Source of the DNA: an uncultured Gammaproteobacteria bacterium
Lineage (GTDB): Bacteria > Patescibacteriota > Patescibacteriia > UBA9934
NCBI GenBank assembly: GCA_964491425.1
Contig: CAZBFR010000002.1
Span: forward strand, 1-33,237
Reading direction: 5' to 3'
DNA: 33,237 nt
Shown: piece by piece, positions 7,469-33,237 of the stretch
Numbering within the stretch: the first letter of the stretch is position 1
Layout of the letters: the number at the start of each line of letters is the position of its first letter
Notes under the pieces: model-generated
What the model saw: the letters and a program-made list of their open reading frames with translations, nothing else
What the model was told of the DNA's origin: nothing
Database searches by the model: none
Position numbers and translations under genes: made by a program

Positions 7469-8807
7469 ACTTTCCATTAACCATTACCTCAAAGTGTAAG
7501 TGCGTTCCCGTTGATCGTCCCGTCGTTCCACAAAGTCCAACCGCCTCACCCTTTACGACCTGTTGCCCGGCAACAACGTAGCGTTTAGCGTGGTGCGCGT
7601 AACGCGTAACGAGGCCGTTTCCGTGATCTACTTCGACCGTTTCTCCGTAGCCATTACGCCAACCCGAATACTTTACAATACCGTCCGCCGCCGCATAGTT
7701 ATTATTCGTGTACCCGCAGTCAATGTCGATTCCGGTGTGACTCCATCCGAATTTTTGCGTAATAATCGTAAGATCCGTTGGCCAGGTCATTGTTCCAGAT
7801 CCGGTTACCTTTGGAGCGACAGGGGATGGGGTTACGGCCGAAGATCCTCCGCTTGTACTTGGTCGAGGAGCTGTAACAACCGTGACAATTGGCTTACCGC
7901 CCGGAACGATAAGCGTTTCTCCTACCGTAAGGGAGCCGGCGTCAGGTAGTCCGTTAAAACTTAGGATCTGTTCAGTCGTTCCTCCATAGTTTTTCGCAAT
8001 CTTTGAAACGGTATCTCCGTTTTTAACTTGGTGCGTAATTCCGTCAACCGGAAGAATCGTAAGGGTCGCCCCAACACGCACCACACAACTTGATCGAAGA
8101 TTATTTGCCCAAATAATTGTATTTACGTCGAGATTAAACTTCTCCGCGATTCCTCCACAAGTATCGCCCGGCTCAACAACATATGTTTCAATTTTTGTTC
8201 GAGGCGCGCTCGAATCGTCCGTTGAAGCGGTTGGAATCGCAATAACCGGGCTTCCGCCAACGATCGACGTTTGCTCCTTTGGAACAAAGACAGCGCCGGC
8301 GGCCGCGTCAAACGACGAGAACGCATAATCTTGGCGGTAGCGCACCGTATTTCGATCAAGTATCTCCACCTCGGTTAGAGCGCGTTCTTCAATAATCTCC
8401 GCCTTCTCTTCAGCGACGAGTTGATACATTAGGCTTCGCTCCCCAAACGTCTCCGCCTTAACGTCACTCGCTCCAATATTCATTAAAATAATCGCGCCAA
8501 CAAGCGTCGTTACAATTACGTGGATCACGTATCGGTGCGTTAAAAACACCATGATTTTGTTCTTAGCGGGACGCGCAATCCGTTGAAGCGACCGTCTAGC
8601 GCCCAAAAAGAGCCGATAAACAGGGACAAGGAGCGAAATGATTACCCCAAATAAAAGGGAGAATGGCCAAAGAAAAAATCGCGCAATTCGAGAAGCTCCC
8701 GGCTTAAGTACAAGCGACAACCGTAGAAGTCGAAGGAGGATCGAAATGGCGATGTATTTGATTTTTTGGATAATAGCGCGCGGTAGAACCGCTTGGTCAT
8801 TATACAA
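7440..8807 (-). CDS. Membrane-anchored LysM-domain M23 peptidase
   Basis: 455 aa with N-terminal TM segments and two LysM repeats (YVVEPGDTCGGIAEKF..., HQVKNGDTVSKIAKNY...). M23 motifs are HTGIDID and THLHFEV. Confidence 0.85.
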   Translation of the reverse strand: MYNDQAVLPRAIIQKIKYIAISILLRLLRLSLVLKPGASRIARFFLWPFSLLFGVIISLLVPVYRLFLGARRSLQRIARPAKNKIMVFLTHRYVIHVIVTTLVGAIILMNIGASDVKAETFGERSLMYQLVAEEKAEIIEERALTEVEILDRNTVRYRQDYAFSSFDAAAGAVFVPKEQTSIVGGSPVIAIPTASTDDSSAPRTKIETYVVEPGDTCGGIAEKFNLDVNTIIWANNLRSSCVVRVGATLTILPVDGITHQVKNGDTVSKIAKNYGGTTEQILSFNGLPDAGSLTVGETLIVPGGKPIVTVVTAPRPSTSGGSSAVTPSPVAPKVTGSGTMTWPTDLTIITQKFGWSHTGIDIDCGYTNNNYAAADGIVKYSGWRNGYGETVEVDHGNGLVTRYAHHAKRYVVAGQQVVKGEAVGLCGTTGRSTGTHLHFEVMVNGKFMNPLSYVR

Positions 8808-8892
8808 GGTGGGCGCGAATCGTCAAGGCAAAAATTGCACTTTTTTGCCAAAGTTAGCGTAAAGCTACCCGCCAAATACGACCCATTTGTGA

Positions 8893-8921
8893 TTGACAAG
8901 AGGGGTAAACCTCGCTACACT
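8893..8921 (+). promoter_or_regulatory. Putative promoter of tig
   Basis: TTGACA (8893-8898), 17-nt spacer, TACACT (8916-8921). Only 10 nt separate the -10 box from the ATG at 8932. Confidence 0.45.
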
Positions 8922-8931
8922 CGGGGCACCT

Positions 8932-10218
8932 ATGTCATATACCATTGAGAAGGAAAACAATACCGCGAAAATCACTCTTACGATCGAAACAGCGCTCGTT
9001 GAAGAGGGAATGAAGCGAGCGGCACAAAGAATGAGTGAGCAAAGCGCTATTCCGGGCTTCCGCCCAGGAAAGGCAACGTACGAGGCGGTCAAGCAACGCG
9101 TTGGAGAAATGGCGCTTCTTGAGGCCTCTGCCGAGGAGCTTATCCGCGCGGCATTTGTCGAGGCGATGCTTAAAGAGGACCTCGAGACCGTTGGTCAGCC
9201 ACATTTTCATACAGAAGTTCTCGCACCGGGTAACGATATTATCGTTACCGCGGAGGTTGCGCTCTACCCACACGTAATTAAACTCGCTGATTATAAATCA
9301 ATGACGGTTACGAAGGAGGATCCAAAAGCCACCCCAGAACTCATCGAGGGAGCAAAGCGCGATCTACAAATGATGCGCACAAAAGAAATCCGCAAAGAAA
9401 AGGGAAGTACGCTTGAAAAGGGAGATAAGACAGTTGTAAACCTTGTAATGAAGCAGGGTGGTGTCGTTCTCGAGGGAGGCGAAGGAAAAAACCACGGAAT
9501 TTACACGGGGGAAGCGCACTATATTCCAGGACTTGTAGAAAAACTCCTTGGAGCGAAAGAAGAAGAGGTCAAATCGTTCACCCTTCCATTCCCTGAAACG
9601 CACTACCAAAAGCACCTCGCTGGAAAAGATGTTGATTTTGATGTGACAATTAACGAAATCTACAAGCTCGAGGCTCCGGAAATTGACGACGCCTTCGCGA
9701 AAACGCTTGGGCTAAACACGGCAAAAGAACTTGAAGATAAAATCGCGGAAAACATTACTGCAGAACGCACGCACGACGAATCCCTTCGCCAAGATAAAGC
9801 GATTCTCGACGCTATTTCCGCGAAATCTACCTTCGAAGAAATTCCGGAACTTCTTGTCAATCAAGAATTGAACAAGATGGTGATGGAACTCGAGCACACG
9901 ATCAAAGATCGAGGAATGGAGCTCGACGAATATCTAAAGTCAATCGGAAAATCGATCTCCGAACTTAAGCTCGAATTTACAAAAGGTGCCCTCGAGCGCA
10001 TCAAAGCCTCCCTTGTTCTTAAGTCGATTATCGAGAGCGAAAAAATCACCGTAAGCGAAGAAACGCTCGACAAAGAACTTGATCGAATCGCAGAAGGATA
10101 TAAAGAAAACGCCGAAGTAAAGAAACAAATTTACTCTCCGGAATACCGCGCCTATATCGAAATGCAGTTGAAAAATAAGGCGGCACTCGAATACCTAAAG
10201 GGTATCATGGTCAAATAA
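8932..10218 (+). CDS. tig: Trigger factor
   Basis: An ORF starting MSYTIEKENNTAKITLTIE... with the ribosome-binding signature GFRPGKA. The length and domain order are typical of Tig. The upstream part of the ORF (8893-8931) overlaps the promoter. Confidence 0.9.
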   Translation: MSYTIEKENNTAKITLTIETALVEEGMKRAAQRMSEQSAIPGFRPGKATYEAVKQRVGEMALLEASAEELIRAAFVEAMLKEDLETVGQPHFHTEVLAPGNDIIVTAEVALYPHVIKLADYKSMTVTKEDPKATPELIEGAKRDLQMMRTKEIRKEKGSTLEKGDKTVVNLVMKQGGVVLEGGEGKNHGIYTGEAHYIPGLVEKLLGAKEEEVKSFTLPFPETHYQKHLAGKDVDFDVTINEIYKLEAPEIDDAFAKTLGLNTAKELEDKIAENITAERTHDESLRQDKAILDAISAKSTFEEIPELLVNQELNKMVMELEHTIKDRGMELDEYLKSIGKSISELKLEFTKGALERIKASLVLKSIIESEKITVSEETLDKELDRIAEGYKENAEVKKQIYSPEYRAYIEMQLKNKAALEYLKGIMVK

Positions 10219-11283: not shown

Positions 11284-11370
11284 TTGTCCACAGTTTAGTC
11301 GACTTATCCACAAAGTTATCCTCAAAATCCACACAAATGGCCGGCTTGTGAGCTGTGGATATGTGGTATA
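11284..11370. promoter_or_regulatory. DnaA-box cluster, the likely oriC DnaA-assembly region and dnaA autoregulatory region
   Basis: Boxes: TTGTCCACA 11284-11292; TTATCCACA 11304-11312 (perfect); TTATCCTCA 11316-11324; AAATCCACA 11325-11333; reverse-oriented ATATCCACA 11354-11362; a weak TATACCACA 11362-11370. The cluster lies in the divergent rpmH-dnaA spacer. Confidence 0.65.
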
Positions 11371-11419
11371 TGATGACCCCGTCGTCACTAATTTGGAGGG
11401 GATTCCCCGACTCATGCTT

Positions 11420-12850
11420 ATGAACACCCACGAACTGTGGCAAGCCGCCCTTGGCGAGCTTGAACTCAAACTTAGTAAGGCCCAATTCACTACTTGGTTT
11501 AGAAACACGTTCATCGCGAATGTGACCGATCAGGGATTTACCATCGCTGTTCCAAACACGTTCACGAAAACCTGGCTCGAGAAGAAATTCCATCGAGACA
11601 TCCTCCAAACACTCCAATCAATTACCGAGCAAACGATTCGTACACTCGAGTACCGTATCGAAACACGGCCAAGAGAGCCCGAGCCAGTCATTTTTGAAAA
11701 ACAACAACCGACCGAGAAACACGTCTACCTAGATATCCGCCCAGAACGAAGCGAAGAGACCGCTCAAGATCTCGGATTTACGAGCGAAAGCTTCGCGGGC
11801 TCCGAAGGAACGGGTTTTGATAAGGCTGGGGGACTTAACCGCCACTACGTATTTGATAATTACGTTGTCGGTAAACAAAACGAACTCGCACACGCGGCGT
11901 CCCAAGCCGTTGCCGCACAACCAGGAGGAACCTACAATCCACTTTTTATCTATGGAGGCGTAGGACTTGGAAAAACCCACCTCCTCCACGCCGTTGGAAA
12001 TGAAATCCTTCGAAGAAAACCGGGGAGCCGAGCTCTTTACGTAACGTGTGAAACGTTCACAAATGATTTTATTCAAGCAGTGCGCGGAGGAAAGGCAAAG
12101 GAATTCAAGGATCGCTACCGAAACGTAGACGTTCTTCTAATCGACGACATCCAGTTTATTACCGGAAAAGAAGGAACCCAAGAGGAGTTCTTTCACACCT
12201 TTAATGCTCTCCACCAAGAAAACAAACAAATCGTTATTTGCTCAGACCGCGCGCCAAAAGTCATTGCCGGCCTAGAAAAACGTCTTCTTTCGCGTCTTGA
12301 ATGGGGAATGCTTGTTGATATCGGCGCCCCAGACCTTGAAACACGAATCGCTATCCTCCACGCAAAGTGCCTTAACCGAGGAGTCCACTTCGAACGCGAA
12401 ATCCTCCACTATATTTGCGAGAACATCCAATCAAACGTCCGTGAACTCGAAGGAGCCTTGAATAAAATCATTGCCTGGCACCAATTTAAGAACCTCAAAG
12501 CGACGATTGATTCGATCAAACCCCTTATCGCAAGCTACGGATCGGATTCAATGAAGAAAACAATCTCTCCAAAGCAGATTATTATCACCGTTTCCGAGTA
12601 CTTCGATATCGACATGGACCACGTTCTAGGTAAAAGCAGAGAAAAGCGCCTCGCCTTCCCGCGACAAATTATTATGTATCTTCTTCGAGAAGAAATGAAG
12701 AGTTCCTACCCATCAATCGGTCAAGAACTTGGAGGACGTGACCACACAACAGCAATGCATGCCTACTCAAAGATTAAAGAGATGGTTGCGGAAAGCGAAA
12801 CCCTAAAACGAGACATCGAATTAATCAAACAAAAGCTCTACGCGACCTAG
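11420..12850 (+). CDS. dnaA: Chromosomal replication initiator protein DnaA
   Basis: [27 protein letters not shown]..., Walker [11 protein letters not shown], box VII, and the C-terminal DNA-binding signature ([12 protein letters not shown]). Alternative starts are 11414 and 11348. Confidence 0.95.
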
Positions 12851-13043
12851 GGATAACCCTGGGGGTAAGTAAGGGGACAAAGAGGGTAGATCAAGGAGGC
12901 TGAAAGCCCCTCAAAACTTCTCCCCAACTCGTACCACGGTCGACTACACCAAGAGCCCACAGGCCACGTCACGTAAAACCCACGTCCCGCAAGCTCCGTT
13001 CACGTTATCCCCTCCGTCCACACCCCTTACTGTTATTACTGTC

Positions 13044-13070
13044 TTATATATAAAATATTTAAAATAAAGA
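13044..13070. other. AT-rich tract, a candidate DNA unwinding element
   Basis: TTATATATAAAATATTTAAAATAAAGA lies immediately upstream of dnaN. Degenerate DnaA-box-like 9-mers precede it at 13005-13013 and 13014-22. Confidence 0.3.
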
Positions 13071-13073
13071 ACT

Positions 13074-14219
13074 GTGAAAGCATCCTGTACACAAGAGAAC
13101 TTACAAAGGGGGCTAGCAATCGTTTCAAGGGCAAGTACGAAAAACGTTAATCTTCCAATTCTCAATAATGTTTATATAGAAGCGGACGCCTCGGGAATTC
13201 AACTTGTTACAACAAACCTCGAGCTTGCCATTTCTTGTTCAATAAGAGGAAAGGTGGATCAGCAGGGAAGTTACACCGTTCCTTCAAAGCTTTTCTTTGA
13301 CGTTGTGTCACTCCTCCCAAACGACCGCGTCGATCTCGATCTCTATGACGATACGCTTTTTATCGCTTCTAAAAAAACGAAGACGAAGATGAAGGGAATG
13401 CCGTCCGCGGATTATCCGCTTGTTCCACCGGTTGAAGGTGGGGTTACATTTGGACTTTCTATTACGGCGCTCAAGGAGGCTCTCTCGCAGGTCATCTTCG
13501 CTTCTGCGACGAACGAGTCGCGTCCGGAGCTCGCGGGGGTTTATATCGCGTTTAATCACCTCGAGGAGGGCGAGGGGTCGGTAGTCTTTGCCGCGACAGA
13601 TAGCTATCGCCTAAGCGAAGTCGTTTCTCGCGTCTCGTCAGGTCCAAAGGAACCGATCTCGGTTATCGCGCCAAGTCGTACACTTGCCGAGGTGTTGCGG
13701 ATCATTTCCATGTACCAAGATGAACCGGACGCACCACCAACGGTTGACCTCCACCTCGGAGAAGGGCAGATGGTGTTTTCCTACGCGAATATCAAAGTTA
13801 CGAGTCGAACGATTGAAGGGCAATATCCAAATTATCGTCAAATCCTTCCAAAGGATAAGAAAACGGAAATTCTCCTTTCGAAGAAGGATTTTGCGCAGGC
13901 GATTAAGACCTCGAGTCTTTTTTCACGGAACGGACTAAACGACGTCGCGATTAAGATCCGAGAATCCCTCGACGGAATCGACTTGCAGGGGGCGGATGCA
14001 GCCCGCGGAGAGAATACGATTGGAATTGACGGACCTGTCGACGGCGAGGCAAAAAACATTGTTCTTAACTATCGCTACCTTCTCGACGGCGTGAATGCGA
14101 TTGATGCGGAGGAGCTTGTTCTTGGAGTCCTTGATAAAGATCGCCCTTGTACCCTCGTTCCTCGCGTTATGCCCGAAGACCGTCGTCAGATTTACTTGAT
14201 CATGCCTATTCGGCAATAA
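13074..14219 (+). CDS. dnaN: DNA polymerase III beta sliding clamp
   Basis: 381-aa ORF with a GTG start, immediately downstream of dnaA. It shows typical beta-clamp features (...ATDSYRLSE..., ...EGQYPNYRQILP...). Confidence 0.95.
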   Translation: MKASCTQENLQRGLAIVSRASTKNVNLPILNNVYIEADASGIQLVTTNLELAISCSIRGKVDQQGSYTVPSKLFFDVVSLLPNDRVDLDLYDDTLFIASKKTKTKMKGMPSADYPLVPPVEGGVTFGLSITALKEALSQVIFASATNESRPELAGVYIAFNHLEEGEGSVVFAATDSYRLSEVVSRVSSGPKEPISVIAPSRTLAEVLRIISMYQDEPDAPPTVDLHLGEGQMVFSYANIKVTSRTIEGQYPNYRQILPKDKKTEILLSKKDFAQAIKTSSLFSRNGLNDVAIKIRESLDGIDLQGADAARGENTIGIDGPVDGEAKNIVLNYRYLLDGVNAIDAEELVLGVLDKDRPCTLVPRVMPEDRRQIYLIMPIRQ

Positions 14220-20312: not shown

Positions 20313-20387
20313 TGGAGGCCACGGTGAGAATCGAACTCACGCATAGCGGTTTTGCAGACCGCCGAATTACCATTTTTCTACGTGGCC
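20313..20387 (-). tRNA. tRNA-Cys: tRNA-Cys (anticodon GCA), with CCA encoded
   Basis: The reverse complement folds as a cloverleaf. Acceptor GGCCACG/CGTGGCC; anticodon stem GCGGT/ACCGC with loop CTGCAAA; T-arm GTGAG/CTCAC with loop TTCGATT; 3' TCCA. Length 75 nt. Confidence 0.92.
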
Positions 20388-20542: not shown

Positions 20543-21151
20543 TTACTTGAACCTAGGGCGCAGGCTAATGACTCCGAACTGCCCACGTCCACCGTCGCTC
20601 ATAAATGCCAGAAAGTGCAGGTGGTCTCGGTCGGTCCAACCACTCTTACCGGTCCGAGCGATGGGCTGACCCGCGTCCACGTAATCTCCGACCTTGATGC
20701 CGAACTCGCATTCGGATCCCCGCGCCAAGTGGCAGTACTGCGTCCAGTGACGATACTCGGGTGGTCCGGAATGGTGATGTGTTCGCCGTGTCGTGTGAGC
20801 AAGCGTGATGTAGTTCAGGTCATCAGCGAACTCATACGTGGGCCCGTATCGTTCGGAATCTGTCTTGACCACCTCTACTCTTCCATCGTCGGCAGCATAG
20901 ACAACGGTTCCGTCAGGAACCAGAAAATCAATGGCGTGCCTAAAGGGGCCGATGTGGCTGTTGGGACTTTGACAACAGAGGAACGGCCCTTGAAGGAACA
21001 GATCTTCCTTGGTGACGCCGGCTACTAGGGCCGGAACCGCGAGACGAAGCGTTGTGGAGTCCTGAATCGGAAAGGATAGTGGATACGGGTATTCTTGGTC
21101 AGACGCGTACAGCGGGTTTGACGCTTCGCGTAGAAGGGTTTCGTAGTTCAC
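20543..21151 (-). CDS. M23-family peptidase without a recognisable signal peptide, GC-rich
   Basis: 202 aa with a GTG start and GAGG 9 nt upstream. M23 motifs are HAIDF (HxxxD) and DHLHF (HxH). GC is about 60% against about 48% for the backbone. Confidence 0.75.
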   Translation of the reverse strand: MNYETLLREASNPLYASDQEYPYPLSFPIQDSTTLRLAVPALVAGVTKEDLFLQGPFLCCQSPNSHIGPFRHAIDFLVPDGTVVYAADDGRVEVVKTDSERYGPTYEFADDLNYITLAHTTRRTHHHSGPPEYRHWTQYCHLARGSECEFGIKVGDYVDAGQPIARTGKSGWTDRDHLHFLAFMSDGGRGQFGVISLRPRFK

Positions 21152-21225
21152 GATAAACCTCGGGAGTTAGTGGATGGCGCCCATTTGTATGAACGCAGGT
21201 GTAAGTTATAGGCTTACTTATAAAC

Positions 21226-21265
21226 TTGCAAACAGTTGGCAATTTGTTGTAGAATTGTATTCTAC
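21226..21265 (+). promoter_or_regulatory. Putative promoter with an overlapping palindromic operator upstream of the TrmB-like regulator
   Basis: TTGCAA (21226-21231), 18-nt spacer, TAGAAT (21250-21255). The perfect inverted repeat GTAGAAT-TGT-ATTCTAC (21249-21265) overlaps the -10 box. Confidence 0.35.
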
Positions 21266-21326
21266 AAAAAGTATTATTAAAGTCCAATATAGTTGTAATT
21301 TATTAAAAAGTGTTGAAAAACAATCT

Positions 21327-22082
21327 ATGGAATCTATTGAATTAGCCTTAAAACAACTCGATTTATCAGAAAATGCAATCAAGATCTATCTGCAAAGCTT
21401 TCATACGGGAAGATCTACAATTGGAGCTTTGGCAAAATGTATATCCATGGATCGTTCCTCTGCCTATCTGGCCGTTCAACAACTCGTAGCAGAAGGACTA
21501 CTAAATGAGGATATTATCGATGGGAAAAAGCATGTTTGGGCAAGTCCACCTAATATAATTGGGGATCTGTTAAAAGATCACGCGCAACAATTTTCAGATA
21601 CCGCGCGAGATATCGATAAAAACTTGGGTGAATTACTGGTTAACTATAGGACGAATAATTCAAAAGTTGCTTTACAGTCATTTTCCGGAAATGGGTCATT
21701 ACCTCGAATTACACAGGATATTTTACAAAGTGATATATCAGAGGTGCGAATTTTTACGAATCAGAATGCCGAACGAAAAGTATTTTCGGCAAGCGCACAT
21801 GACGACTTTATTCAGTCCAGGGTCCGAAAAGGAATTAAGGCCTATGTTTTGGCTGCAGATACCAAAGGAGCGGATTTACTGCAACGATATGACGAGCGTG
21901 AACTGCGAAAAACAAAAGTTAATAAAAGTTTGGCGCCGTTAAAAAATGAAACGTACATTTACGGTGACAGTGTTGCTGTATTAGGATTCTCGGATACCGT
22001 TTTTGGATTTATTGTTCACGATAAAGAGTTTGCTGAGCTACAAAGGTTGTTATTTGACCACCTCTTTCAGACGGAAGGTTAA
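21327..22082 (+). CDS. TrmB-like winged-helix transcriptional regulator, AT-rich gene
   Basis: MESIELALKQLDLSENAIKIYLQSFHTGRSTIGALAKCISMDRSSAYLAVQQLVAEGLL fits the TrmB-type HTH pattern. The start is taken at the ATG at 21327 rather than at the track ORF start (21174). Confidence 0.65.
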   Translation: MESIELALKQLDLSENAIKIYLQSFHTGRSTIGALAKCISMDRSSAYLAVQQLVAEGLLNEDIIDGKKHVWASPPNIIGDLLKDHAQQFSDTARDIDKNLGELLVNYRTNNSKVALQSFSGNGSLPRITQDILQSDISEVRIFTNQNAERKVFSASAHDDFIQSRVRKGIKAYVLAADTKGADLLQRYDERELRKTKVNKSLAPLKNETYIYGDSVAVLGFSDTVFGFIVHDKEFAELQRLLFDHLFQTEG

Positions 22083-26198: not shown

Positions 26199-27365
26199 AT
26201 GGCGAACTTTGTCATTATCGGAGGGGGTATTACCGGTGTGACGGCGGCGGAACAGCTTCGGAAAAAGAGTCCGGAGTCGGTTGTGACGCTTATTGAGCGG
26301 GAAATCGAGCCTTTGTATTCGCGGGTGCTCCTCCCCCACTATATTAAGGGTGTTATTCCACGCGAGAAGGTTTTTTTAAAAGCGGAAAATTGGTATCAAA
26401 AAGAGGGGATCGAATGGCTTCGAGGGGTCGAAGTTACGGCAATCGATACGAAGAATAAGTTTGTGACGATAAGCGAGGGGCGTGAGATTCCGTACGACGC
26501 GCTTTTGATTGCGACCGGAGGGGAGGTGAATTTAATGCCTGACGCAAAAGAGGGGATCGTCTATTTTCGAACGCTCGCGGACGCCGACGAGATTTTATCG
26601 CGCTGCGAAGAGCTTAAGGGAACGGGCGGAACGGCGGTTGTTCTTGGAGGGGGTTTTATCTCATTTGAGTTTATTAATATCTTTGCCCACTTTGGGATCC
26701 CGTTTGAAATTATTTTACGAGGGAAAGGATTTTTTGGCGGGATGCTTCTACCGGAACTCTCGGAAATGATTAAAGCCCATGTCACAAAGGCGGGTTATAA
26801 AATCCACGACGGGGTAGAAATTAAAGAGGTTCTCGGCGAAACGGCGGTTGAAGGGGTTACGCTTACGAACGAGGCGACAATTCCTTGCCGAATGATCGGC
26901 GCTGGAATCGGAATTCATCCCGAGCGCGCGCTTATCGAAGGGAGCCCACTCGTCCTTAAAAAAGGTCTTCTTGTTAATGAATATCTAGAAACGGAGACTC
27001 CGGGGGTTTTTGCCTCGGGAGATGTCGCGGAATATTTTGATCTTGAAACGGGTCGGCACCGTGTGTTTGGTAATTGGATGAATGCGCAAATGCAGGGGCG
27101 ACTTGTCGCGGAGAATATGGCGGGCGGAAAGAAGCCGTTTTCTCTTGTCTCTTCCTATGCGACAAATGTCCTTAAAAAGGAGCTAACCGTTATCGGGGAT
27201 ACGGATCCGTCATTTGCTGAAGCGAGAATACTCCGAAAGACCGAAGAGGACGCCTTGCAAGTCTTTGAAAGGGACGGTAAAACGGTAGGGGCGGTGATTT
27301 TTGGCAGTGCGAAGGAGCGGGGCGCTATTACAAAGGCTATCCAGCAAAAAGAACGCTATGCATGA
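26199..27365 (+). CDS. FAD-dependent pyridine nucleotide-disulfide oxidoreductase (ferredoxin/rubredoxin reductase-like)
   Basis: MANFVIIGGGITGVTAAEQL (FAD GxGxxG), a second Rossmann motif (VVLGGGFISFE) and GDVAE. The ATG lies 1 nt after the ferredoxin stop. Confidence 0.85.
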   Translation: MANFVIIGGGITGVTAAEQLRKKSPESVVTLIEREIEPLYSRVLLPHYIKGVIPREKVFLKAENWYQKEGIEWLRGVEVTAIDTKNKFVTISEGREIPYDALLIATGGEVNLMPDAKEGIVYFRTLADADEILSRCEELKGTGGTAVVLGGGFISFEFINIFAHFGIPFEIILRGKGFFGGMLLPELSEMIKAHVTKAGYKIHDGVEIKEVLGETAVEGVTLTNEATIPCRMIGAGIGIHPERALIEGSPLVLKKGLLVNEYLETETPGVFASGDVAEYFDLETGRHRVFGNWMNAQMQGRLVAENMAGGKKPFSLVSSYATNVLKKELTVIGDTDPSFAEARILRKTEEDALQVFERDGKTVGAVIFGSAKERGAITKAIQQKERYA

Positions 27366-28425
27366 TTTAAATGATCTCGAGATTTTTAAAAAGTTCGATA
27401 AAACCGATATTGCCTATGGGATTGAGCACCTTCCCGAGCAGGTAAAGGAAGCTGTCGAAGGGACGCGATTTTTAACGATCCCTGAAGCGTGTAAAAAGGC
27501 GAAAGAAGTTGTCGTTGTTGGGATGGGTGGGTCGCTTCTTGGACCACATATCGCAAAAAGCATTCTTAGCGCGACCTGTAAGGTTTCGTTTACGCTCGTA
27601 AATACCTATCGTCTTCCGGCGCACGTCGGAAAGCAGAGTCTCGTCATTCTATCGAGTTTTTCGGGGACAACGGAAGAGGTTTTGGAGGTGGCGAAGGAGG
27701 TGAAGAAACGTGGATGTCCAACGCTTGTTATTACGAGTGGGGGAGGGCTTGAAAAGCTCGCGAAGAAGCATAAATGGCCATACTACCTAATCGTGCCGGG
27801 AGATCTCGCGCGACAACCGCGCCTAGGGGTTGGATTCTCGCTTGCGGGAGTTCTTGGACTTCTCGATCGCGCGGGATTTACGAAGTTTTCGATGCAAAAG
27901 GCAAAACTTGCGGTTACGGCGATGGAGGAAGTGATCGATTCTTGTGCGCTTGAAGTTAAAATAAAAGAAAACCCGGCAAAGCAGGTTGCGGAGGCTCTTT
28001 ATGGAAAACAAATCGTTGTCCTTTCGGCGGATCATCTCGAAGGATCGGCGCACACTCTTTCAAATCAAATTAACGAATCAGCGAAGCAACTAAGCGGATA
28101 TCATATCGTTCCGGAGCTTAATCACCATTATCTTGAAGGGACCCTTCTTCCGGACGGTCACTACGAGCACTTCGCGATTCTTATCCTTTCGTCAAAGCAC
28201 TACCATCCGCGAAACGCGAAGCGTCTCGCGATTACGGCGGATCTTCTCGAGGAGAGAGGGGCGGAGATTGTCGAATACGCGGTCCAAGGCGATTCTCCTC
28301 TTGAAGAGGCCTTCGAGGTCCTCCAATTTGGAAGTTTCCTCTCGTATTATCTCGGCATTTTAAACGGTGTCGACCCTGAAAAAATCCCCTTCGTCGATCT
28401 CTTTAAAAAACGGATGGCGGAGTAG
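27358..28425 (+). CDS. SIS-domain bifunctional phosphoglucose/phosphomannose isomerase
   Basis: MHDLNDLEIFKKFDKTD..., VVVGMGGSLLG..., SSFSGTTEE. The length and C-terminus are typical. It overlaps the upstream gene by 8 nt. Confidence 0.85.
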   Translation: MHDLNDLEIFKKFDKTDIAYGIEHLPEQVKEAVEGTRFLTIPEACKKAKEVVVVGMGGSLLGPHIAKSILSATCKVSFTLVNTYRLPAHVGKQSLVILSSFSGTTEEVLEVAKEVKKRGCPTLVITSGGGLEKLAKKHKWPYYLIVPGDLARQPRLGVGFSLAGVLGLLDRAGFTKFSMQKAKLAVTAMEEVIDSCALEVKIKENPAKQVAEALYGKQIVVLSADHLEGSAHTLSNQINESAKQLSGYHIVPELNHHYLEGTLLPDGHYEHFAILILSSKHYHPRNAKRLAITADLLEERGAEIVEYAVQGDSPLEEAFEVLQFGSFLSYYLGILNGVDPEKIPFVDLFKKRMAE

Positions 28426-28446
28426 GGAAAAATTTAGAAAATGAAG

Positions 28447-28498
28447 AGGACCGGAGCCGAGTCTCCCGCGCGTTCGCGGGAAATCTCGGTCCGGTCCT
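28447..28498. terminator. Long GC-rich hairpin at the left edge of the GC-rich island
   Basis: Pairings: AGGACCGGA (28447-28455) with TCCGGTCCT (28490-28498); inner CCGAG/CTCGG; CCCGCG/CGCGGG. A T-rich tail follows on the minus strand (reverse complement of 28426-28446). Confidence 0.5.
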
Positions 28499-28515
28499 TT
28501 ACGTTCCGCTCCCGC

Positions 28516-30420
28516 TCACAGGCCGGTGAGGACGGGGGCGACCTTCGTCTCGAGGCAGTACGCGCGGTGCTCGCGATCGGGAATCGCGAGTTGGCGCTCT
28601 TCCTGCGTCATCTCGAGCAACCTGTCGGTCGTCGGGCAAGGGAAGACGTACGGATCCGCCAGTTCTTTTGCCGAGTCGATGACCGCCGCTGATGCGATGA
28701 GGACGAGCGGGGTGATACAAAGGATGAGCGTTCCCATCCACGCAACTTTCCACGCGTACGACTTCCAGAAGCCAAGGCTTTGAAGGCGCTTTTCCTCGTA
28801 GGACATCCAACGCGCGGTTGTTTGCCACCACTCGAGAAAAGCGACACTTCCCGTTGCGAGTACGGTGATCAGGATCGCGATTTCACCCGCGAGAATGCCC
28901 TGAAAGGTTGCTCCTGGAACGGTGGCGATGACCACAGACGGAACGAGCACCGCGATGGGGATGTAGATGACGCTCATCCCGAGCATGGTGTAAATCGCTC
29001 CGCCGCTCAGCCAGTGAGGATTTCTCCTCATAGGCTTGCTCCATCGCCACTCCTCGCGGTCCTTCGCCGACAAGGCATCGTTCGCATTTCCGCCCGGGAG
29101 GAGCCCCTGAGCGAATTTGGGGACGATGGACTTGAGGACGCTTCCGGGCGTGGTTCCCGTAAAGTGCCGGCCATCAACCTGGTTTCGCAGTTCATCCACG
29201 AGGTGTGCGAGAACTCCGAAGAGGTGCCGCCCCGGGAAAAACAGCGTCCACCCCGTGAACATCATCGCCACCGAAGTGAACGGACCCAGCCAAGGGGATC
29301 CAAACAGGAGGTGCGCGACTTCGACGAGGCCTGTGACGTAGATGGAGAGGCCCGCTCCCATCAAGAGAAACGGAGCCAGGAACATGAGGAGCGGGAGTGC
29401 GGCGCGCTTCCAGAAGTACCACGACCAGATGAGGTCACGGACGTTGTCAGCGCTGTCCGCGAGTCGTTCCCCGCCACCGGCGTTCAGGAGTCGATCGGTC
29501 ACGACGCCCTGGGCCGTGATCGCGATCGACTGCAGGAAACTCGGCTGAGGCCCATGAATGCGGATCGCGGTGAACACGCCTCGACAAGCATCGAGCATGC
29601 GCTCGACCTCGTCTTGAAGGTTGTTGAAGTTGTTGCGATCGGCCGGCTCCAGGATGTCCTTGTTCGCTTTCTGAGCCTCGCGCGCCAACGTCCCTTCGGG
29701 AGTATCCATGGAGGACGTGTCCCGACGCTTCTGGTACAAGCTCGTCATGATCTCGGTCATGTTCTCAAACTTGTTCAGTGTCGCCATCTTGGCTTCGAAC
29801 TCGGCCTCGGACATGTCCGGAATCGCAAGCGCCACCTCTTCGAGGCTCAGCGCTCCGTTCCTGATCTGGTGCATGAGTCGCCACCAGCGGCTCGATCCGA
29901 TCCGCCTGTACCATCCTTGGTTGCGCAGGTCGATCAGGTAGTCCATGACGATGAGGAACCGCAACTGACCCGGCCTCAAGAGAGGAGCCTTGACCATCGT
30001 CCGGTACTTGATCGGCATCGCTTCTTCGAGGAATCCGGCGAACTCGTCGACCGTGAGCTTGCGCTTTTCGGTCTTCGCTTTGGCGACGGCGTCGATGAAT
30101 CCGACGACCGCACCACTGCCGAGCATTCGTACGCCCTGCACCCCGTAGGTTGCCATGGATCCAAGTACTCGGTACTTCGGTCCAGCGATTCTCGGGATCA
30201 GGCCCTCGAGGAAAAACGCGACCCAGTCGATGAAGAGCGGGACGTGTTCGAGCGGGATCTCTTCGATGGCGTCGGGGATCCAGTCATAGACCTTCTCAAT
30301 CGACGCGGCACCGAGGTTGCGTGTAATCTTTTCTGCACGCTCGCGGTACTTCTCTGCGGCGGCACCGATGCCGGCCTTGGTAAGGAGATCGAAGGCTTCT
30401 GAAATAGAGACGGCACCCAT
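28516..30420 (-). CDS. Large polytopic membrane protein of unknown family (634 aa)
   Basis: AAGGAGG lies 6 nt upstream of the ATG whose reverse complement is at 30418-30420. A soluble N-terminal region of about 345 aa is followed by multiple hydrophobic helices (e.g. ALPLLMFLAPFLLMGAGLSIYVTGLV, IYIPIAVLVPSVVIATV, AILITVLATGSVAFL). The track ORF extends to 30528. Confidence 0.7.
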   Translation of the reverse strand: MGAVSISEAFDLLTKAGIGAAAEKYRERAEKITRNLGAASIEKVYDWIPDAIEEIPLEHVPLFIDWVAFFLEGLIPRIAGPKYRVLGSMATYGVQGVRMLGSGAVVGFIDAVAKAKTEKRKLTVDEFAGFLEEAMPIKYRTMVKAPLLRPGQLRFLIVMDYLIDLRNQGWYRRIGSSRWWRLMHQIRNGALSLEEVALAIPDMSEAEFEAKMATLNKFENMTEIMTSLYQKRRDTSSMDTPEGTLAREAQKANKDILEPADRNNFNNLQDEVERMLDACRGVFTAIRIHGPQPSFLQSIAITAQGVVTDRLLNAGGGERLADSADNVRDLIWSWYFWKRAALPLLMFLAPFLLMGAGLSIYVTGLVEVAHLLFGSPWLGPFTSVAMMFTGWTLFFPGRHLFGVLAHLVDELRNQVDGRHFTGTTPGSVLKSIVPKFAQGLLPGGNANDALSAKDREEWRWSKPMRRNPHWLSGGAIYTMLGMSVIYIPIAVLVPSVVIATVPGATFQGILAGEIAILITVLATGSVAFLEWWQTTARWMSYEEKRLQSLGFWKSYAWKVAWMGTLILCITPLVLIASAAVIDSAKELADPYVFPCPTTDRLLEMTQEERQLAIPDREHRAYCLETKVAPVLTGL

Positions 30421-30518
30421 TTGGGGCCTCCTTGTGCATCTCTGCACGGCTTGGAGTTGAATTCTAAAGGGCTGTTGTCGCCCAAATTCGGCTAATCCGA
30501 AAGTAAGTACGACGCTTA

Positions 30519-30598
30519 AAAATAGCACAAAATCAAGGATTTGTCAACCAAAAGTTACGTTTGCAGGGTTGACAAAATGACGATTTTCTGCTATCTTG
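30519..30598. promoter_or_regulatory. Palindromic bidirectional promoter
   Basis: Plus strand: TTGACA 30569-30574, 17 nt, TATCTT 30592-30597. Minus strand: TTGACA (30547-30542), 17 nt, TATTTT (30524-30519). The perfect 9-bp inverted repeat is TTGTCAACC (30541-30549) and GGTTGACAA (30568-30576). The two arms match at about 25 of 31 positions. Confidence 0.55.
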
Positions 30599-30635
30599 CA
30601 AAGTCGTGAAACCTTTCACTGGAGGCCTAAAAGCC

Positions 30636-31175
30636 ATGCGAATCATGACGTTTGTCCTTTTAATGGCCATGGCGACGGAAGTCGCCGTGGCGCAGAGCAA
30701 CAGTTCCCCGCAGACCATGACGGTCTGTACGGAGACCATGAAGGAACAGCGGGTGCTCGGCATTCCGTTTCGGACGAAGCGCACGCAGTGTAATACCAAC
30801 ACGATTTCGGGCACCGTGCCCGTGGTCGGAGGTGGTCTCGGAATGGCGCCGGTCGGAGTCTACGCTCCGCGGTGTCCCGAGTGCGTGACGTCGCAGACAA
30901 TCGCGTACATCCGGGACGACCAGGTGCGTTCGGCGGATTTGGCGGCGGCACGCATCGCCGAGCTCCAAGCCGAGCTCGCGCGAGAGCGGGCGCGGACAAG
31001 TCGGACCGTTTCGGGATCAACTTCCTCTCGTACGGGTTCGACGGCCCAGACCACGACTACGCCCGTCGTCCCAGCGGTTCCCGCGAAGACGCCGGCCCAG
31101 ATCGCGGCCGAAGAGGCGGAGCGGCGGCGCCGTGCCGCCGAAATCCTCCGCGAGGAAGCGGGAGGTGCCCCGTGA
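30636..31175 (+). CDS. Secreted hypothetical protein: 4 Cys, a coiled-coil segment and an S/T/P-rich linker
   Basis: GGAGG (30621-30625) lies 10 nt upstream of the ATG. The signal-like N-terminus is MRIMTFVLLMAMATEVAVAQ. I recognise no family. Confidence 0.6.
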   Translation: MRIMTFVLLMAMATEVAVAQSNSSPQTMTVCTETMKEQRVLGIPFRTKRTQCNTNTISGTVPVVGGGLGMAPVGVYAPRCPECVTSQTIAYIRDDQVRSADLAAARIAELQAELARERARTSRTVSGSTSSRTGSTAQTTTTPVVPAVPAKTPAQIAAEEAERRRRAAEILREEAGGAP

Positions 31176-31786
31176 ACGATCTCTTCATTGGTCCCCGGAC
31201 CCTGATCGGCATCGCTGCGGCCGTAGTGTTCTTCGCGAACACCTGCGACGCACAGACCCTCCGTCCCGAGGACCTCGTCGGAGAAGCGTCCTACGCCGAT
31301 CCGAAGTTCTGCTACGTGGGCGGAAAGCCCTCGGGGTGGGACGAGGAGCCCGGCCAATTCATCCTCGAGAACCAACTGCGTCAACCGCTGGTGCCCCGCA
31401 TCGGCGAAGACGTGGTCTGGATTCTTGAGCCTCCAGCAGGACTCTTCGGAGACCCGGTCTTCACCAGGCTTCCGAACGGGATGATGCAGGTGAGTAAAGC
31501 TCGCGTCCGCGCGGAAGCTCTCACCGATACTGGCGAGCACGTCAGTATCCTCGGCCCGAACGAGATCTGCTACGGGGCAGGTCTGCGCGAAGGTGAGTAC
31601 TTGGTCACCGGGACCATGTACCGGCTCTCGCAGAACCAGCCGAACGTCAACATTCCGGGAGTGGGTTACAACCTGCTCTCGAATCGGATCCAGCTCTGGA
31701 AGACCGGAAGGCCTTCCAGGTGGAACTCGGACGGGATCTCGCTGCTTCGAGAGCAGTTCCAGTCCTACGAGTTCGCGGGCGGTTGA
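31172..31786 (+). CDS. Secreted hypothetical protein, translationally coupled to the upstream gene
   Basis: The GTG start overlaps the upstream TGA (GTGA at 31172-31175). GGGAGG (31160-31165) lies 6 nt upstream. The signal-like N-terminus is VNDLFIGPRTLIGIAAAVVFFANTCDAQ. Confidence 0.6.
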   Translation: MNDLFIGPRTLIGIAAAVVFFANTCDAQTLRPEDLVGEASYADPKFCYVGGKPSGWDEEPGQFILENQLRQPLVPRIGEDVVWILEPPAGLFGDPVFTRLPNGMMQVSKARVRAEALTDTGEHVSILGPNEICYGAGLREGEYLVTGTMYRLSQNQPNVNIPGVGYNLLSNRIQLWKTGRPSRWNSDGISLLREQFQSYEFAGG

Positions 31787-31833
31787 GACCCCAAGGCGCG
31801 ATTTGTTCCGCGCACGTCTAGAACAAAAAAAGT

Positions 31834-31862
31834 ACGCCCCACCGACACGTGTCGGGGGGCGT
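31834..31862. terminator. Bidirectional terminator at the right edge of the GC-rich island
   Basis: ACGCCCC(A)CCGACA-CG-TGTCGGGGGGCGT, with a perfect 14-nt palindrome at 31842-31855. An A-run (31824-31830) lies upstream and T-rich sequence downstream. Confidence 0.6.
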
Positions 31863-31879
31863 TCTTGTATTCTCGCTAC

Positions 31880-32272
31880 TTATGTACCAGCGTCGATTCC
31901 GGCCTCGGTGATTGCCTCGGTCACAAAGGTTGTGATTGCGTAGGCAGCGAGGATGATTACGAGACCAATCACTGCGTTTTGCATTAGTTTTTGCGCTTGT
32001 CCGGCCTTTTCATCGCTTCCTCCAGACGTCATCCAAAGGAATCCGGCGTAGATAATCATGATTAAGAAGATAATACCGAGGATTGAAAGGAAGATTCGGA
32101 TTCCGCTTCCAACGACCGTTTCAAGATCGGCGCTTCCAAGCCCACCCTCCTCGGCGATATCTCCCGTAAAGCTTCCGAAACCGTCAAAACCCTGTGCTTT
32201 TACCGGCGTTGTGCTAACAAGGGGGAGAAGAAGGGCCATTCCAAGGACGAGAAATGAAATAAATCGTTTCAT
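31880..32272 (-). CDS. T4SS-pilin-like (TrbC/VirB2-like) small membrane protein, paralog 1
   Basis: 130 aa with a signal peptide (MKRFISFLVLGMALLLPLVSTTPVKAQ). Two TM helices flank the motif YAGFLWMTSGGSDEKAGQAQ. Confidence 0.7.
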   Translation of the reverse strand: MKRFISFLVLGMALLLPLVSTTPVKAQGFDGFGSFTGDIAEEGGLGSADLETVVGSGIRIFLSILGIIFLIMIIYAGFLWMTSGGSDEKAGQAQKLMQNAVIGLVIILAAYAITTFVTEAITEAGIDAGT

Positions 32273-32341
32273 AGGTATTGTTAATTGGCTTTATTGTAGC
32301 ATATCCGTAAAATACAAAAAGGACTTTTTCCCCCGCTGTGG

Positions 32342-32370
32342 ATTATACCAAAAAACGCCGTTAAGGCGTT
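32342..32370 (-). promoter_or_regulatory. Terminator of pilin paralog 2 followed by an extended -10 promoter of paralog 1
   Basis: On the minus strand, the hairpin AACGCC-TTAAC-GGCGTT (32370-32354) is followed by a T-run and then TGG-TATAAT (the TATAAT hexamer is the reverse complement of 32342-32347). The stop codon of paralog 2 lies in the hairpin loop. Confidence 0.4.
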
Positions 32371-32783
32371 TGGGGTGTCGTGGTCGCCGGAGCGTCGCTT
32401 TCGGCTAGTCCGCTCGACTGGAGCGCTCGTTCAACGAAGAGGGTGATCGAATAAGAGGCGAGAATGATAATGATACCGATGATACAGTTTCTTATAATCC
32501 CTTGAGCTTGTTGTACTTTTTCCTGCGTTCCGCCCGCCGTCATCCAAAGAAATCCCGCGTAGAGAATATAGAAAAGGAGAACGACGCCGAGAAGCGATAG
32601 CGCTATTTGTATACCGTTACCGATAAGCTCAACGAGCGTTGGCGCGGTGTTAGCAGAACCAAAAACTGCAGCCCCCGCCTTGTCAAATTCATCTAAAATA
32701 TTTGCCTGCACGCGTAGTTGAGCAAATGCCTTGGCGGGAACAATGAAGGCTAGTCCACCCAAAAGTAAATAAAATCGTTTCAT
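32361..32783 (-). CDS. T4SS-pilin-like small membrane protein, paralog 2
   Basis: The start is taken at MKRFYLLLGGLAFIVPAKAFAQ (the ATG whose reverse complement is at 32781-32783). The motif is YAGFLWMTAGGTQEKVQQAQ. Confidence 0.7.
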   Translation of the reverse strand: MKRFYLLLGGLAFIVPAKAFAQLRVQANILDEFDKAGAAVFGSANTAPTLVELIGNGIQIALSLLGVVLLFYILYAGFLWMTAGGTQEKVQQAQGIIRNCIIGIIIILASYSITLFVERALQSSGLAESDAPATTTPQTP

Positions 32784-32787
32784 AGTA

Positions 32788-33168
32788 TTAGCTAGTCGGA
32801 TTCGCTCCGCCTGTTGCGGCCATGATAATAAATCGCGTAATCGCGTAGGCGGCGAGGATAATAACAAGACCGATAACGGCGTTACGGAAAACCCCCTGCG
32901 CCTTCGTTACTTGCTCTTCTTGGCCACCGGCGGTCATCCAAAGAAATCCCCCATAGATCATCAAAAGAAGAAAGGCGACGCCGGTTAGGGCGAAGAGGGG
33001 ATTGATAATACGTGCACCGACGAATGTTCCGATCGAGGCGTTTGCTCCGAGTTGGCCAAAGACCGCTACACCGGTTGTCGTAAGCCCCGTGTCATCTACC
33101 GAAACCTGTGCAAAGGCAAATTTTGGCATGAAAAGAAACAGCCCGAGAAGGAAGAACGCTTTTCTCAT
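32788..33168 (-). CDS. T4SS-pilin-like small membrane protein, paralog 3
   Basis: The start is taken at MRKAFFLLGLFLFMPKFAFAQ (the ATG whose reverse complement is at 33166-33168). The motif is YGGFLWMTAGGQEEQVTKAQ. Its stop lies 4 nt before the start of paralog 2. Confidence 0.7.
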   Translation of the reverse strand: MRKAFFLLGLFLFMPKFAFAQVSVDDTGLTTTGVAVFGQLGANASIGTFVGARIINPLFALTGVAFLLLMIYGGFLWMTAGGQEEQVTKAQGVFRNAVIGLVIILAAYAITRFIIMAATGGANPTS

Positions 33169-33237
33169 AGCGAAAGGGGACCTAAATCCCCAATCGTCAG
33201 GAGGAAAACTAGATGTTGTTTGCCGCGTCAAGGAGCG

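Follow-up and report, generated by a model that had tools for sequence, protein, structure and literature searches.

A GC-rich block of three genes lies between the gene for phosphoglucose isomerase (PGI) and an array of pilin-like genes on contig CAZBFR010000002.1 (assembly GCA_964491425.1), and raises the question of whether it is a foreign insertion or a resident, if unusual, part of the chromosome. An original prediction, made from the 33,237 nucleotides of this contig (the whole stretch analysed here, referred to as the window), had taken the block to be inserted next to the pilin genes and had suggested that it may come from a high-GC donor, possibly a host organism. Comparison with related contigs reveals no mobile insertion but a locus fixed in the chromosome, close to the origin of replication. 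Here, a conserved frame holds two replaceable coding cassettes that occur in discrete, anciently diverged and discordantly distributed types (approximately 25-40% amino acid identity between types). The frame is made up of PGI, a terminator hairpin, the last ~40 codons of a large gene (28516-28638, minus strand), a 215-bp control region (30421-30635), the signal-peptide codons of a gene termed p2, a second terminator and the pilins. Cassette 1 (28639-30420, minus strand) encodes the core of a 634-residue membrane protein, while cassette 2 covers the mature parts of p2 (179 residues, 30636-31175, plus strand) and of a second gene, p3 (204 residues, 31172-31786, plus strand), both predicted to be Sec-exported, Cys-containing proteins. 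We consider it somewhat more probable than an even chance that this is a replacement-type, multi-allelic envelope locus, whose cassettes are exchanged by homologous recombination.

The eight related contigs (L001-L008) form, together with the window, six lineages: the window; L002/L004; L005/L006/L007; L001; L003; and L008. Seven were found by way of an island protein. L004, a metagenome-assembled genome from GTDB, was found via its PGI flank, and is the sole sample not picked through the island proteins. All eight carry the island at this site. Where the contigs reach, the gene order is NifU, ferredoxin, Pyr_redox, PGI, large gene, control region, p2, p3 and pilins; the order from PGI to the pilins holds in the window, L002, L004, L005, L006 and L007, and what is covered by the partial contigs L001, L003 and L008 agrees with it. 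The flanks and the control region are 65-89% identical over the six lineages. At the DNA level, the window is approximately 79-85% identical to L002, L003 and L004 up to position 28638, a point within the large gene and 123 nt from its 3' end. Similarity returns at 30425, just upstream of the large-gene start codon (30420), and none is detectable from 28638 to 30425 when the window, which carries core type A, is compared with types B, C and D. DNA identity also breaks separately across p2 and p3. A second pair of contigs, L006 and L004, is 87-89% identical in the flanks and 84% identical in the control region, with large-gene cores and p2/p3 that lack DNA similarity.

At the protein level, four discrete types of large-protein core can be distinguished, with 87-88% identity inside a type and 25-31% across types. 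Type A is found in the window and L001, type B in L004/L002 and L003, type C in L005, L006 and L007, and type D in L008; types B (L003) and D (L008) were both obtained from sample SRR15237813. The C-terminal tail does not follow the core: the window tail is 98% identical to that of L004 with cores only 30% identical (A versus B), and L001 shares core type A with the window, their tails being just 32% identical. The mature part of p2 is 75-78% identical within a type and 24-42% identical between types, with p2 groups (window with L004, L003 with L008) that cut across the core types. The p3 protein of the window is 96% identical to its L004 and L002 copies, and 23-24% identical to the L006 copy. 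The resulting combinations are core A, tail 1 and p2/p3 type alpha in the window; core B, tail 1 and alpha in L004; core B and beta in L003; core D and beta in L008; and core C and gamma in L006. The exported-protein arm varies independently of the large-protein core, and the locus is a mosaic, whose discordant core, tail and p2 groupings would fit exchange between genomic backgrounds. Neither these discrete, deeply divergent and independently reassorting coding cassettes in a conserved frame, nor the divergent orientation of the genes, had been noticed in the original prediction.

Within types, the large protein has a ratio of nonsynonymous to synonymous divergence (dN/dS) of 0.15-0.20, compared with 0.045 for p3 and 0.37-0.47 for p2. 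Judged by these ratios, each type is under purifying selection, and this constraint establishes that the called frames are real genes. The types far predate the split of the lineages that carry them: L006 and L004, at a synonymous divergence (dS) of 0.56 in the flanks, have island proteins that are only 23-30% identical. The window and L004 have reached saturation in the flanks (dS 1.4-1.5), with a dS of 0.35-0.57 for p2 and p3. The lower values are suggestive of a more recent transfer of that arm, although strong codon bias could also depress dS.

The compositional anomaly of the block is genuine. Between 28501 and 32000, the GC content is 0.57-0.65 in 500-nt intervals, against approximately 0.49 in the flanks, and the other 28 kb of the window lies mostly at 0.44-0.55. 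The offset is located at third codon positions: the GC fraction at these positions (GC3) is 0.76 for the large gene, 0.75 for p2 and 0.78 for p3, in each case more than 4 standard deviations (sd) above the backbone mean of 0.497 (sd 0.061, 27 window genes), with the first and second codon positions (GC1 and GC2) just slightly up. A and T each account for approximately 0.10-0.12 of third positions, and TTA, CTA and TCA codons are nearly missing. This codon deficit explains the long antisense open reading frames (ORFs) found opposite the block genes, at 28780-30402 (plus strand, 540 residues) and 30860-31540 (minus strand, 226 residues). Overlapping antisense genes were rejected, as these ORFs are broken in L001 and L008. 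The GC3 excess is confined to the block genes and ends at the gene boundaries, leaving the adjoining flank genes unaffected. The block is also uneven, since the 215 bp between the two arms have a GC content of 0.38-0.45: it consists of two GC-rich coding arms that flank a backbone-like, AT-rich control region.

Sharp edges of this kind would be displayed by an island that had recently entered between PGI and the pilins from a high-GC donor, possibly the host of an epibiotic Candidate Phyla Radiation (CPR) bacterium. The GC3 deviation ending at gene boundaries, a codon usage that resembles that of an organism with ~60% GC, and strong Shine-Dalgarno (SD) sites unlike those of most backbone genes all point in this direction. 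However, the same locus with the same offset (GC3 of 0.72-0.85 versus ~0.50 in the flanks, in all related loci and types) occupies the same site in all six lineages, including those whose flanks have diverged to a dS of ~1.4-1.5, and the promoter region between the arms is backbone-like in both composition and conservation. Finding the three genes kept at this locus along with their GC offset is also the outcome that the original prediction had named as speaking against acquisition. No integrase, transposase or other mobility gene is present in the block, where the three genes have no family match, or adjacent to it. There is no tRNA gene at either edge, the sole tRNA of the window (Cys, 20313-20387) being 8 kb away, and no direct repeats or att sites longer than expected by chance were found around the block. 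A mobile element was rejected on the lack of tRNA, repeats and integrase. Outside this locus, no homologue was found in 5.8 billion protein clusters and 1.84 billion representative proteins (~15 billion proteins), or in viral and JGI contigs, and no donor, whether a high-GC organism or a host, can be named for that reason. Recent acquisition of the block is thus largely refuted, and we regard it as very unlikely.

Two known sources of local variation were also considered. A diversity-generating retroelement would leave a template/variable repeat pair, and none was found in 27800-32400; nor was a reverse transcriptase present among the window ORFs scanned, and the variation spans whole genes at 25-31% identity, unlike the short variable repeat of such elements. 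Silent donor cassettes, as in pilE/pilS, were rejected, with no extra copies in the 33-kb window or in the 12.5 kb of L004.

Both compositional edges coincide with strong hairpins, as had been predicted (-43 and -26 kcal/mol; z -5.1 to -6.4 against shuffled sequences). The left hairpin (28440-28505) is long and GC-rich, corresponds to inverted repeat I2, and folds with -43.1 (plus strand) and -43.4 (minus strand) kcal/mol, with z-scores of -5.6 and -6.4; its sequence is kept in L003 and L004. The right hairpin (31830-31866), also GC-rich, folds with -26.0 and -25.5 kcal/mol (z -5.9 and -5.1), and has an A-run and T-rich sequence alongside. The former lies between the convergent PGI and large-protein genes and the latter between the convergent p3 and first pilin-like genes; both are therefore probably bidirectional terminators. 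An abrupt change of composition at hairpins, together with many long ORFs open in several frames, might reflect an artefact, either an assembly chimera with DNA of a GC-rich organism or non-coding GC-rich DNA with spurious ORFs. Against this, both junctions recur in independent assemblies from other samples (L001-L004), the called frames show strong GC3 periodicity and purifying selection, and the antisense ORFs stem from codon bias and are not conserved. The chance of an artefact is vanishingly small, and the chimera against which the original prediction had cautioned can be set aside.

The control region was characterised by a promoter scan, an inverted repeat (I1) and cross-lineage alignment. 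It contains two back-to-back, near-consensus sigma-70-type promoters, at 30547-30519 (minus strand) and 30569-30597 (plus strand). Each has the form TTGACA-17 nt-TAT(T/C)TT with an extended -10 TG, and the pair forms a 41-nt imperfect inverted repeat. The region can be aligned in all six lineages with 65-84% identity and varies continuously. The large gene (28516-30420, minus strand) is read divergently from the p2-p3 operon (30636-31786), and its 5' untranslated region of ~95 nt (30421-30519, minus strand) is conserved in the six lineages. This leader can fold three small hairpins, one immediately upstream of the SD site, and one stem carries a compensatory C-G to A-U change; a regulatory role is possible. 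Comparison with Rfam gave no family match, and the reading of the leader as a known riboswitch or other known RNA was dropped. A short leader of the p2-p3 operon is also part of the control region.

The three genes themselves are as originally described: a 634-residue protein that is first soluble and then polytopic, and two signal-peptide proteins joined by a GTGA stop/start overlap. All three have strong SD sites (AAGGAGG, GGAGG and GGGAGG for the large gene, p2 and p3, respectively) that are uncommon elsewhere in the window, where GGAGG ahead of a plausible start codon is rare. The large protein starts with ATG and lacks a signal peptide. According to a hydropathy scan, the first ~335-340 residues are soluble, and the polytopic part has 5 or 7 transmembrane (TM) helices. 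The N-terminal domain is all-helical in an AlphaFold2 (AF2) model built from 4 sequences, which has low confidence (predicted local distance difference test score, pLDDT, of 48.5). A conserved motif, D-x5-G-x-GE-x-L-x-D (DRLLNAGGGERLAD in the window), is located ahead of the first hydrophobic block. This block is followed by a basic loop of ~70 residues (W...RxPxWL), a TM hairpin, a basic loop of 35 residues and a final TM helix. The tail of 40-55 residues carries the pattern C-P-[TS]...Y-C, with both Cys residues invariant in 6/6 sequences, and is predicted to be extracytoplasmic. An N-in/C-out arrangement is most consistent with the positive-inside rule and the Cys pair, given the segments predicted by the hydropathy scan.

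The p2 signal peptide is encoded within the conserved frame. In an alignment of five sequences, the mature part of p2 has a conserved Cys pair, a Gly-rich segment, a coiled coil and a Thr/Pro/Ala-rich linker, and ends in a conserved basic helix (RRRRAAExLR). A CPEC (CxxC) sequence at residues ~80-85 is present in the alpha type (window and L004) and missing from beta and gamma. p3 starts with GTG, its gene overlapping that of p2 at 31172-31175. Following the signal peptide it has a mature domain, probably beta-rich, with two invariant Cys residues (DPxxCY...SGW and CYGAGL). The AF2 model of p3 (2 sequences, pLDDT 32.5) was unusable.

None of the three proteins could be placed in a known family, in agreement with the original prediction. 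Pfam, NCBIfam and PHROGs gave no match at curated thresholds for any of them, and scanning the alignment members singly gave nothing consistent; a phrog_20783 match on the p2 coiled coil (E 0.0013) was set aside as low-complexity. Profile searches of the PDB with the three alignments gave nothing below E 0.0038, the top match being a designed binder, and a Foldseek search of the PDB with the large-protein model gave none at E<=0.001. A word-indexed search of the 5.8 billion clusters returned 3 relatives for the large protein, 1 for p3 and 1 for p2. A hidden Markov model scan of the 1.84 billion representative proteins yielded 4 clusters for the large protein, all between PGI and pilin genes, and the viral contigs and JGI metagenome contigs contained no relatives. 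As far as sequence searches can tell, the three proteins are orphan families and the system is undescribed, as had been claimed.

A protein that joins a large cytoplasmic domain to a TM region, hypervariable over its full length and encoded at a compositionally atypical locus with fast turnover, could be seen as an anti-phage defence or abortive infection system, in which the N-terminal domain senses phage and the polytopic half disrupts the membrane, with an arms race driving hypervariability. A match to the NCBIfam model SLATT_1 on the TM4-TM5 hairpin (E 0.0025) points the same way. However, this match was rejected: at 17.8 bits, it is far under the 41-bit cut-off and is seen for type A only (2/6 members). 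No PADLOC model matches the three proteins (PADLOC-DB v2, E<=1), no further defence genes are nearby, and the variation takes the form of allelic replacement at a fixed site, not the presence/absence seen for defence islands. A defence function would also leave two co-regulated exported proteins unexplained. We retain it as an unlikely alternative because an intracellular arms race could explain the divergence of the N-terminal domain discussed below.

The discrete allele classes resemble specificity groups. Together with a divergent promoter region that is conserved and separates the membrane-protein gene from those of the exported proteins, and with the co-occurrence of types in one sample, they suggest a polymorphic toxin/immunity or pherotype-like signal/receptor locus similar to blp or agr, with p2 and p3 as effector or signal and the large protein as immunity protein or receptor. 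The reassortment of the arms (cores A and B with alpha, cores B and D with beta) is unlike strictly cognate pairs, and the strong conservation of p3 within a type (dN/dS 0.045) also argues against it. No HisKA, HATPase, AgrB, response-regulator, peptidase or ABC exporter domain was found in the locus. Such a system is accordingly not a probable explanation.

Given the immediate proximity of the pilin array, a type IV secretion system (T4SS) accessory function of the kind seen in Patescibacteria has to be weighed as well, with the large protein as a divergent VirB6/TrbL-like channel and p2 and p3 as pilus-associated exported factors, co-diverging fast with the array. VirB6 proteins are polytopic, the locus directly adjoins VirB2-like pilins ~19 kb from dnaA, and such an arrangement has been described for CPR T4SS genes (bioRxiv 10.1101/2025.01.22.634366). 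However, profiles of TrbL, VirB6 and other T4SS components (Pfam and NCBIfam) did not match any of six large-protein members even at E<=10, and no virB4 is present in the window or the 12.5 kb of L004. The module converges with the pilins across an intervening terminator and is equipped with its own promoters. Furthermore, the adjacent pilins are ordinary orthologues (68-81% amino acid identity) and not hypervariable. A T4SS role thus seems quite unlikely.

With these alternatives weighed, we return to the replacement-type envelope locus. Related lineages would exchange cassettes through homologous recombination, crossing over in conserved stretches of the frame: the 3' tail and left terminator, the control region plus the p2 signal-peptide codons, and the right terminator together with the pilin gene. 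The polymorphism would be kept by diversifying or negative frequency-dependent selection. A co-expressed envelope complex is the most likely product, because two exported Cys-containing proteins and a polytopic partner with a disulfide-loop tail are encoded behind shared, symmetric promoters. In such a complex, the N-in/C-out large protein would place a helical domain in the cytoplasm, span the membrane with its polytopic part and expose a short disulfide-bonded tail outside, with the stalk-like p2 and the globular p3 sitting on the outer face. The complex might then act in specific recognition, as target or as determinant, whether towards phage, towards a host or partner cell, or among kin. 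That the block encodes a cell-surface or host-interaction module, as originally proposed, is still plausible, and the hypervariability strengthens the case, but it remains something we infer.

Several observations weigh against this interpretation. The presumed cytoplasmic N-terminal domain is as divergent between types as the remainder of the protein (22-35% identity), which is not directly predicted by selection on surface-exposed parts alone; one explanation could be long-term linkage inside a cassette that does not recombine. With 11-35% differences in backbone DNA, the compared lineages are separate species, and the diversity shown is diversity between species; polymorphism inside one population would be an extrapolation. 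Because most of the related loci were retrieved with island proteins, relatives lacking the island could have been missed. With no family, PDB or fold match, no biochemical function can be assigned; both AF2 models are of low confidence, and the large-protein topology is a prediction from a hydropathy scan. Finally, a GC3 excess of ~25 points appears to lie far above the effects of GC-biased gene conversion reported in bacteria, and it does not spill over into the adjacent flank genes.

How, then, does the locus maintain its composition? The four types hold a GC3 near 0.8 in spite of their saturated divergence, and the databases searched contain no GC-rich relatives. Candidate causes are GC-biased repair or conversion at a recombination hot spot, or repeated import from an unsampled GC-rich gene pool. 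Recombining bacterial genes tend toward higher GC3 (PMC4450053). A joint reading of both puzzles is that the locus is the envelope specificity determinant of a Patescibacteria-like episymbiont, made up of discrete recombining recognition types, and that its high GC3 reflects locus-restricted GC-biased recombination and not foreign origin. Such types, comparable to mating, kin or pherotype groups, would set which phages or partner cells can engage the cell, and would act alongside the pilin array. We regard this combination as speculative and, as a whole, rather doubtful. If true, either half would be new: a recognition system of three orphan families, or a 25-point GC3 elevation made in situ in a bacterial genome. 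To our knowledge, the molecules that determine partner or phage specificity in Patescibacteria-type episymbionts are largely unknown, and if the organism is of this type, the locus offers an experimentally tractable candidate. It also provides a natural test of how a few genes keep a 25-point GC3 excess over the long term in a bacterial genome, and carries a lesson for annotation, in that a GC-deviant block need not be a recent foreign insertion.

The genes that flank the block belong to the backbone. On the left, PGI (27358-28425, plus strand) is a bacterial-type enzyme with SIS and bact-PGI_C domains (PF10432, E 8.8e-36), a GC3 of 0.50, and 91% identity to its L004 counterpart at a dS of 1.4. 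On the right, three VirB2/TrbC-like pilin paralogues (31880-33231, minus strand) match the T4SS_pilin family PF18895 (E 3e-9 to 1e-7), have a GC3 of 0.47-0.55, and are orthologous to genes of L004. Taken at their longest, the ORFs of pilin-like genes two and three (32361-32867 and 32788-33231, minus strand) overlap by 80 nt, and the L004 comparison suggests internal ATG starts that would yield pilins of ~137 and 107-147 residues. In L004 the array (6000-9347) runs to six genes, past the point where the window ends, and includes Cys-rich proteins of 194 and 357 residues with a C-terminal pilin-like two-TM domain. The dnaA and dnaN genes are located at 11348-14219 and the cumulative GC skew has its minimum at ~13 kb, indicating the replication origin; the variable locus and pilin array are ~16-20 kb from this origin. 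VirB2-like pilin arrays near dnaA have been described for Patescibacteria (bioRxiv 10.1101/2025.01.22.634366), and by this analogy a CPR affiliation is plausible. L004 (CAYNYL010000019.1) is labelled uncultured Gammaproteobacteria; its PF18895 pilin arrays near dnaA look Patescibacteria-like, and the label may be wrong. The remainder of the window contains housekeeping genes. One further outlier is a TrmB-like regulator gene (21174-22082, plus strand) of low GC (0.37; GC3 0.30), which adjoins the tRNA-Cys gene and an M23 peptidase gene (20543-21151) with a slightly raised GC3 of 0.61. This region may be a second, AT-rich, acquired or variable spot.

The locus shares with a classical GC-deviant acquired island the sharp compositional shift, the distinct codon usage and the distinct translation-initiation signals. 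Unlike such an island, it lacks mobility genes, a tRNA, att repeats and a donor, and among the eight related contigs, 7 of them located via the island, it is present in every one. Staphylococcal agr, with a hypervariable agrB-D-C segment and divergent P2/P3 promoters, and the pneumococcal comCD and blp pherotypes are specificity-group loci. They resemble the present locus in having discrete allele classes without intermediates, a hypervariable segment bounded by conserved sequence that extends into these very genes, conservation of the divergent promoter region, and a polytopic membrane protein with exported products. In contrast to these loci, AgrB, AgrC, HisKA/HATPase, response-regulator and exporter domains are missing here, the arms reassort, and the exported products are proteins of 160-180 residues and not short peptides.

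The VirB2-like pilin arrays of Patescibacteria are described as highly variable, with occasional non-pilin genes in between (bioRxiv 10.1101/2025.01.22.634366). The island is an immediate neighbour of such an array, near dnaA, and its products are likewise exported or membrane proteins; however, they are not pilins and match no T4SS profile, they form separate transcription units, and the GC3 offset and discrete allelic replacement are seen only in the island. Makarova et al. (2021, PMC8416519) describe a hypervariable Ig-domain gene module of Thermococcales, in which a large hypervariable protein with variable partners is read as a conflict or self/non-self recognition system. Both modules are lineage-restricted and combine a large hypervariable protein with variable partner genes. 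The present one differs in that it shows no sequence relationship, is bacterial, has an all-helical polytopic large protein and not an Ig protein, and undergoes cassette-like replacement at a fixed site.

The closest parallel is offered by the replacement-type flexible genomic islands of aquatic prokaryotes, where equivalent but different gene sets for exposed structures occupy one site and are exchanged by homologous recombination (Lopez-Perez, Martin-Cuadrado and Rodriguez-Valera 2014, PMC4033161). Those are glycosylation and O-antigen clusters of 10-100 kb compared among strains, whereas the locus described here comprises two cassettes with three genes compared among different species, its variants are homologous with the same architecture, and one cassette boundary lies inside a gene. 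Replacement islands are also usually GC-poor, and this locus is GC-rich. Like them, it occupies one position in all relatives, presents deeply divergent versions of equivalent genes with sharp breaks against conserved flanks, has an atypical composition, and is predicted to encode envelope products, whose genes may have been exchanged between backgrounds by recombination.

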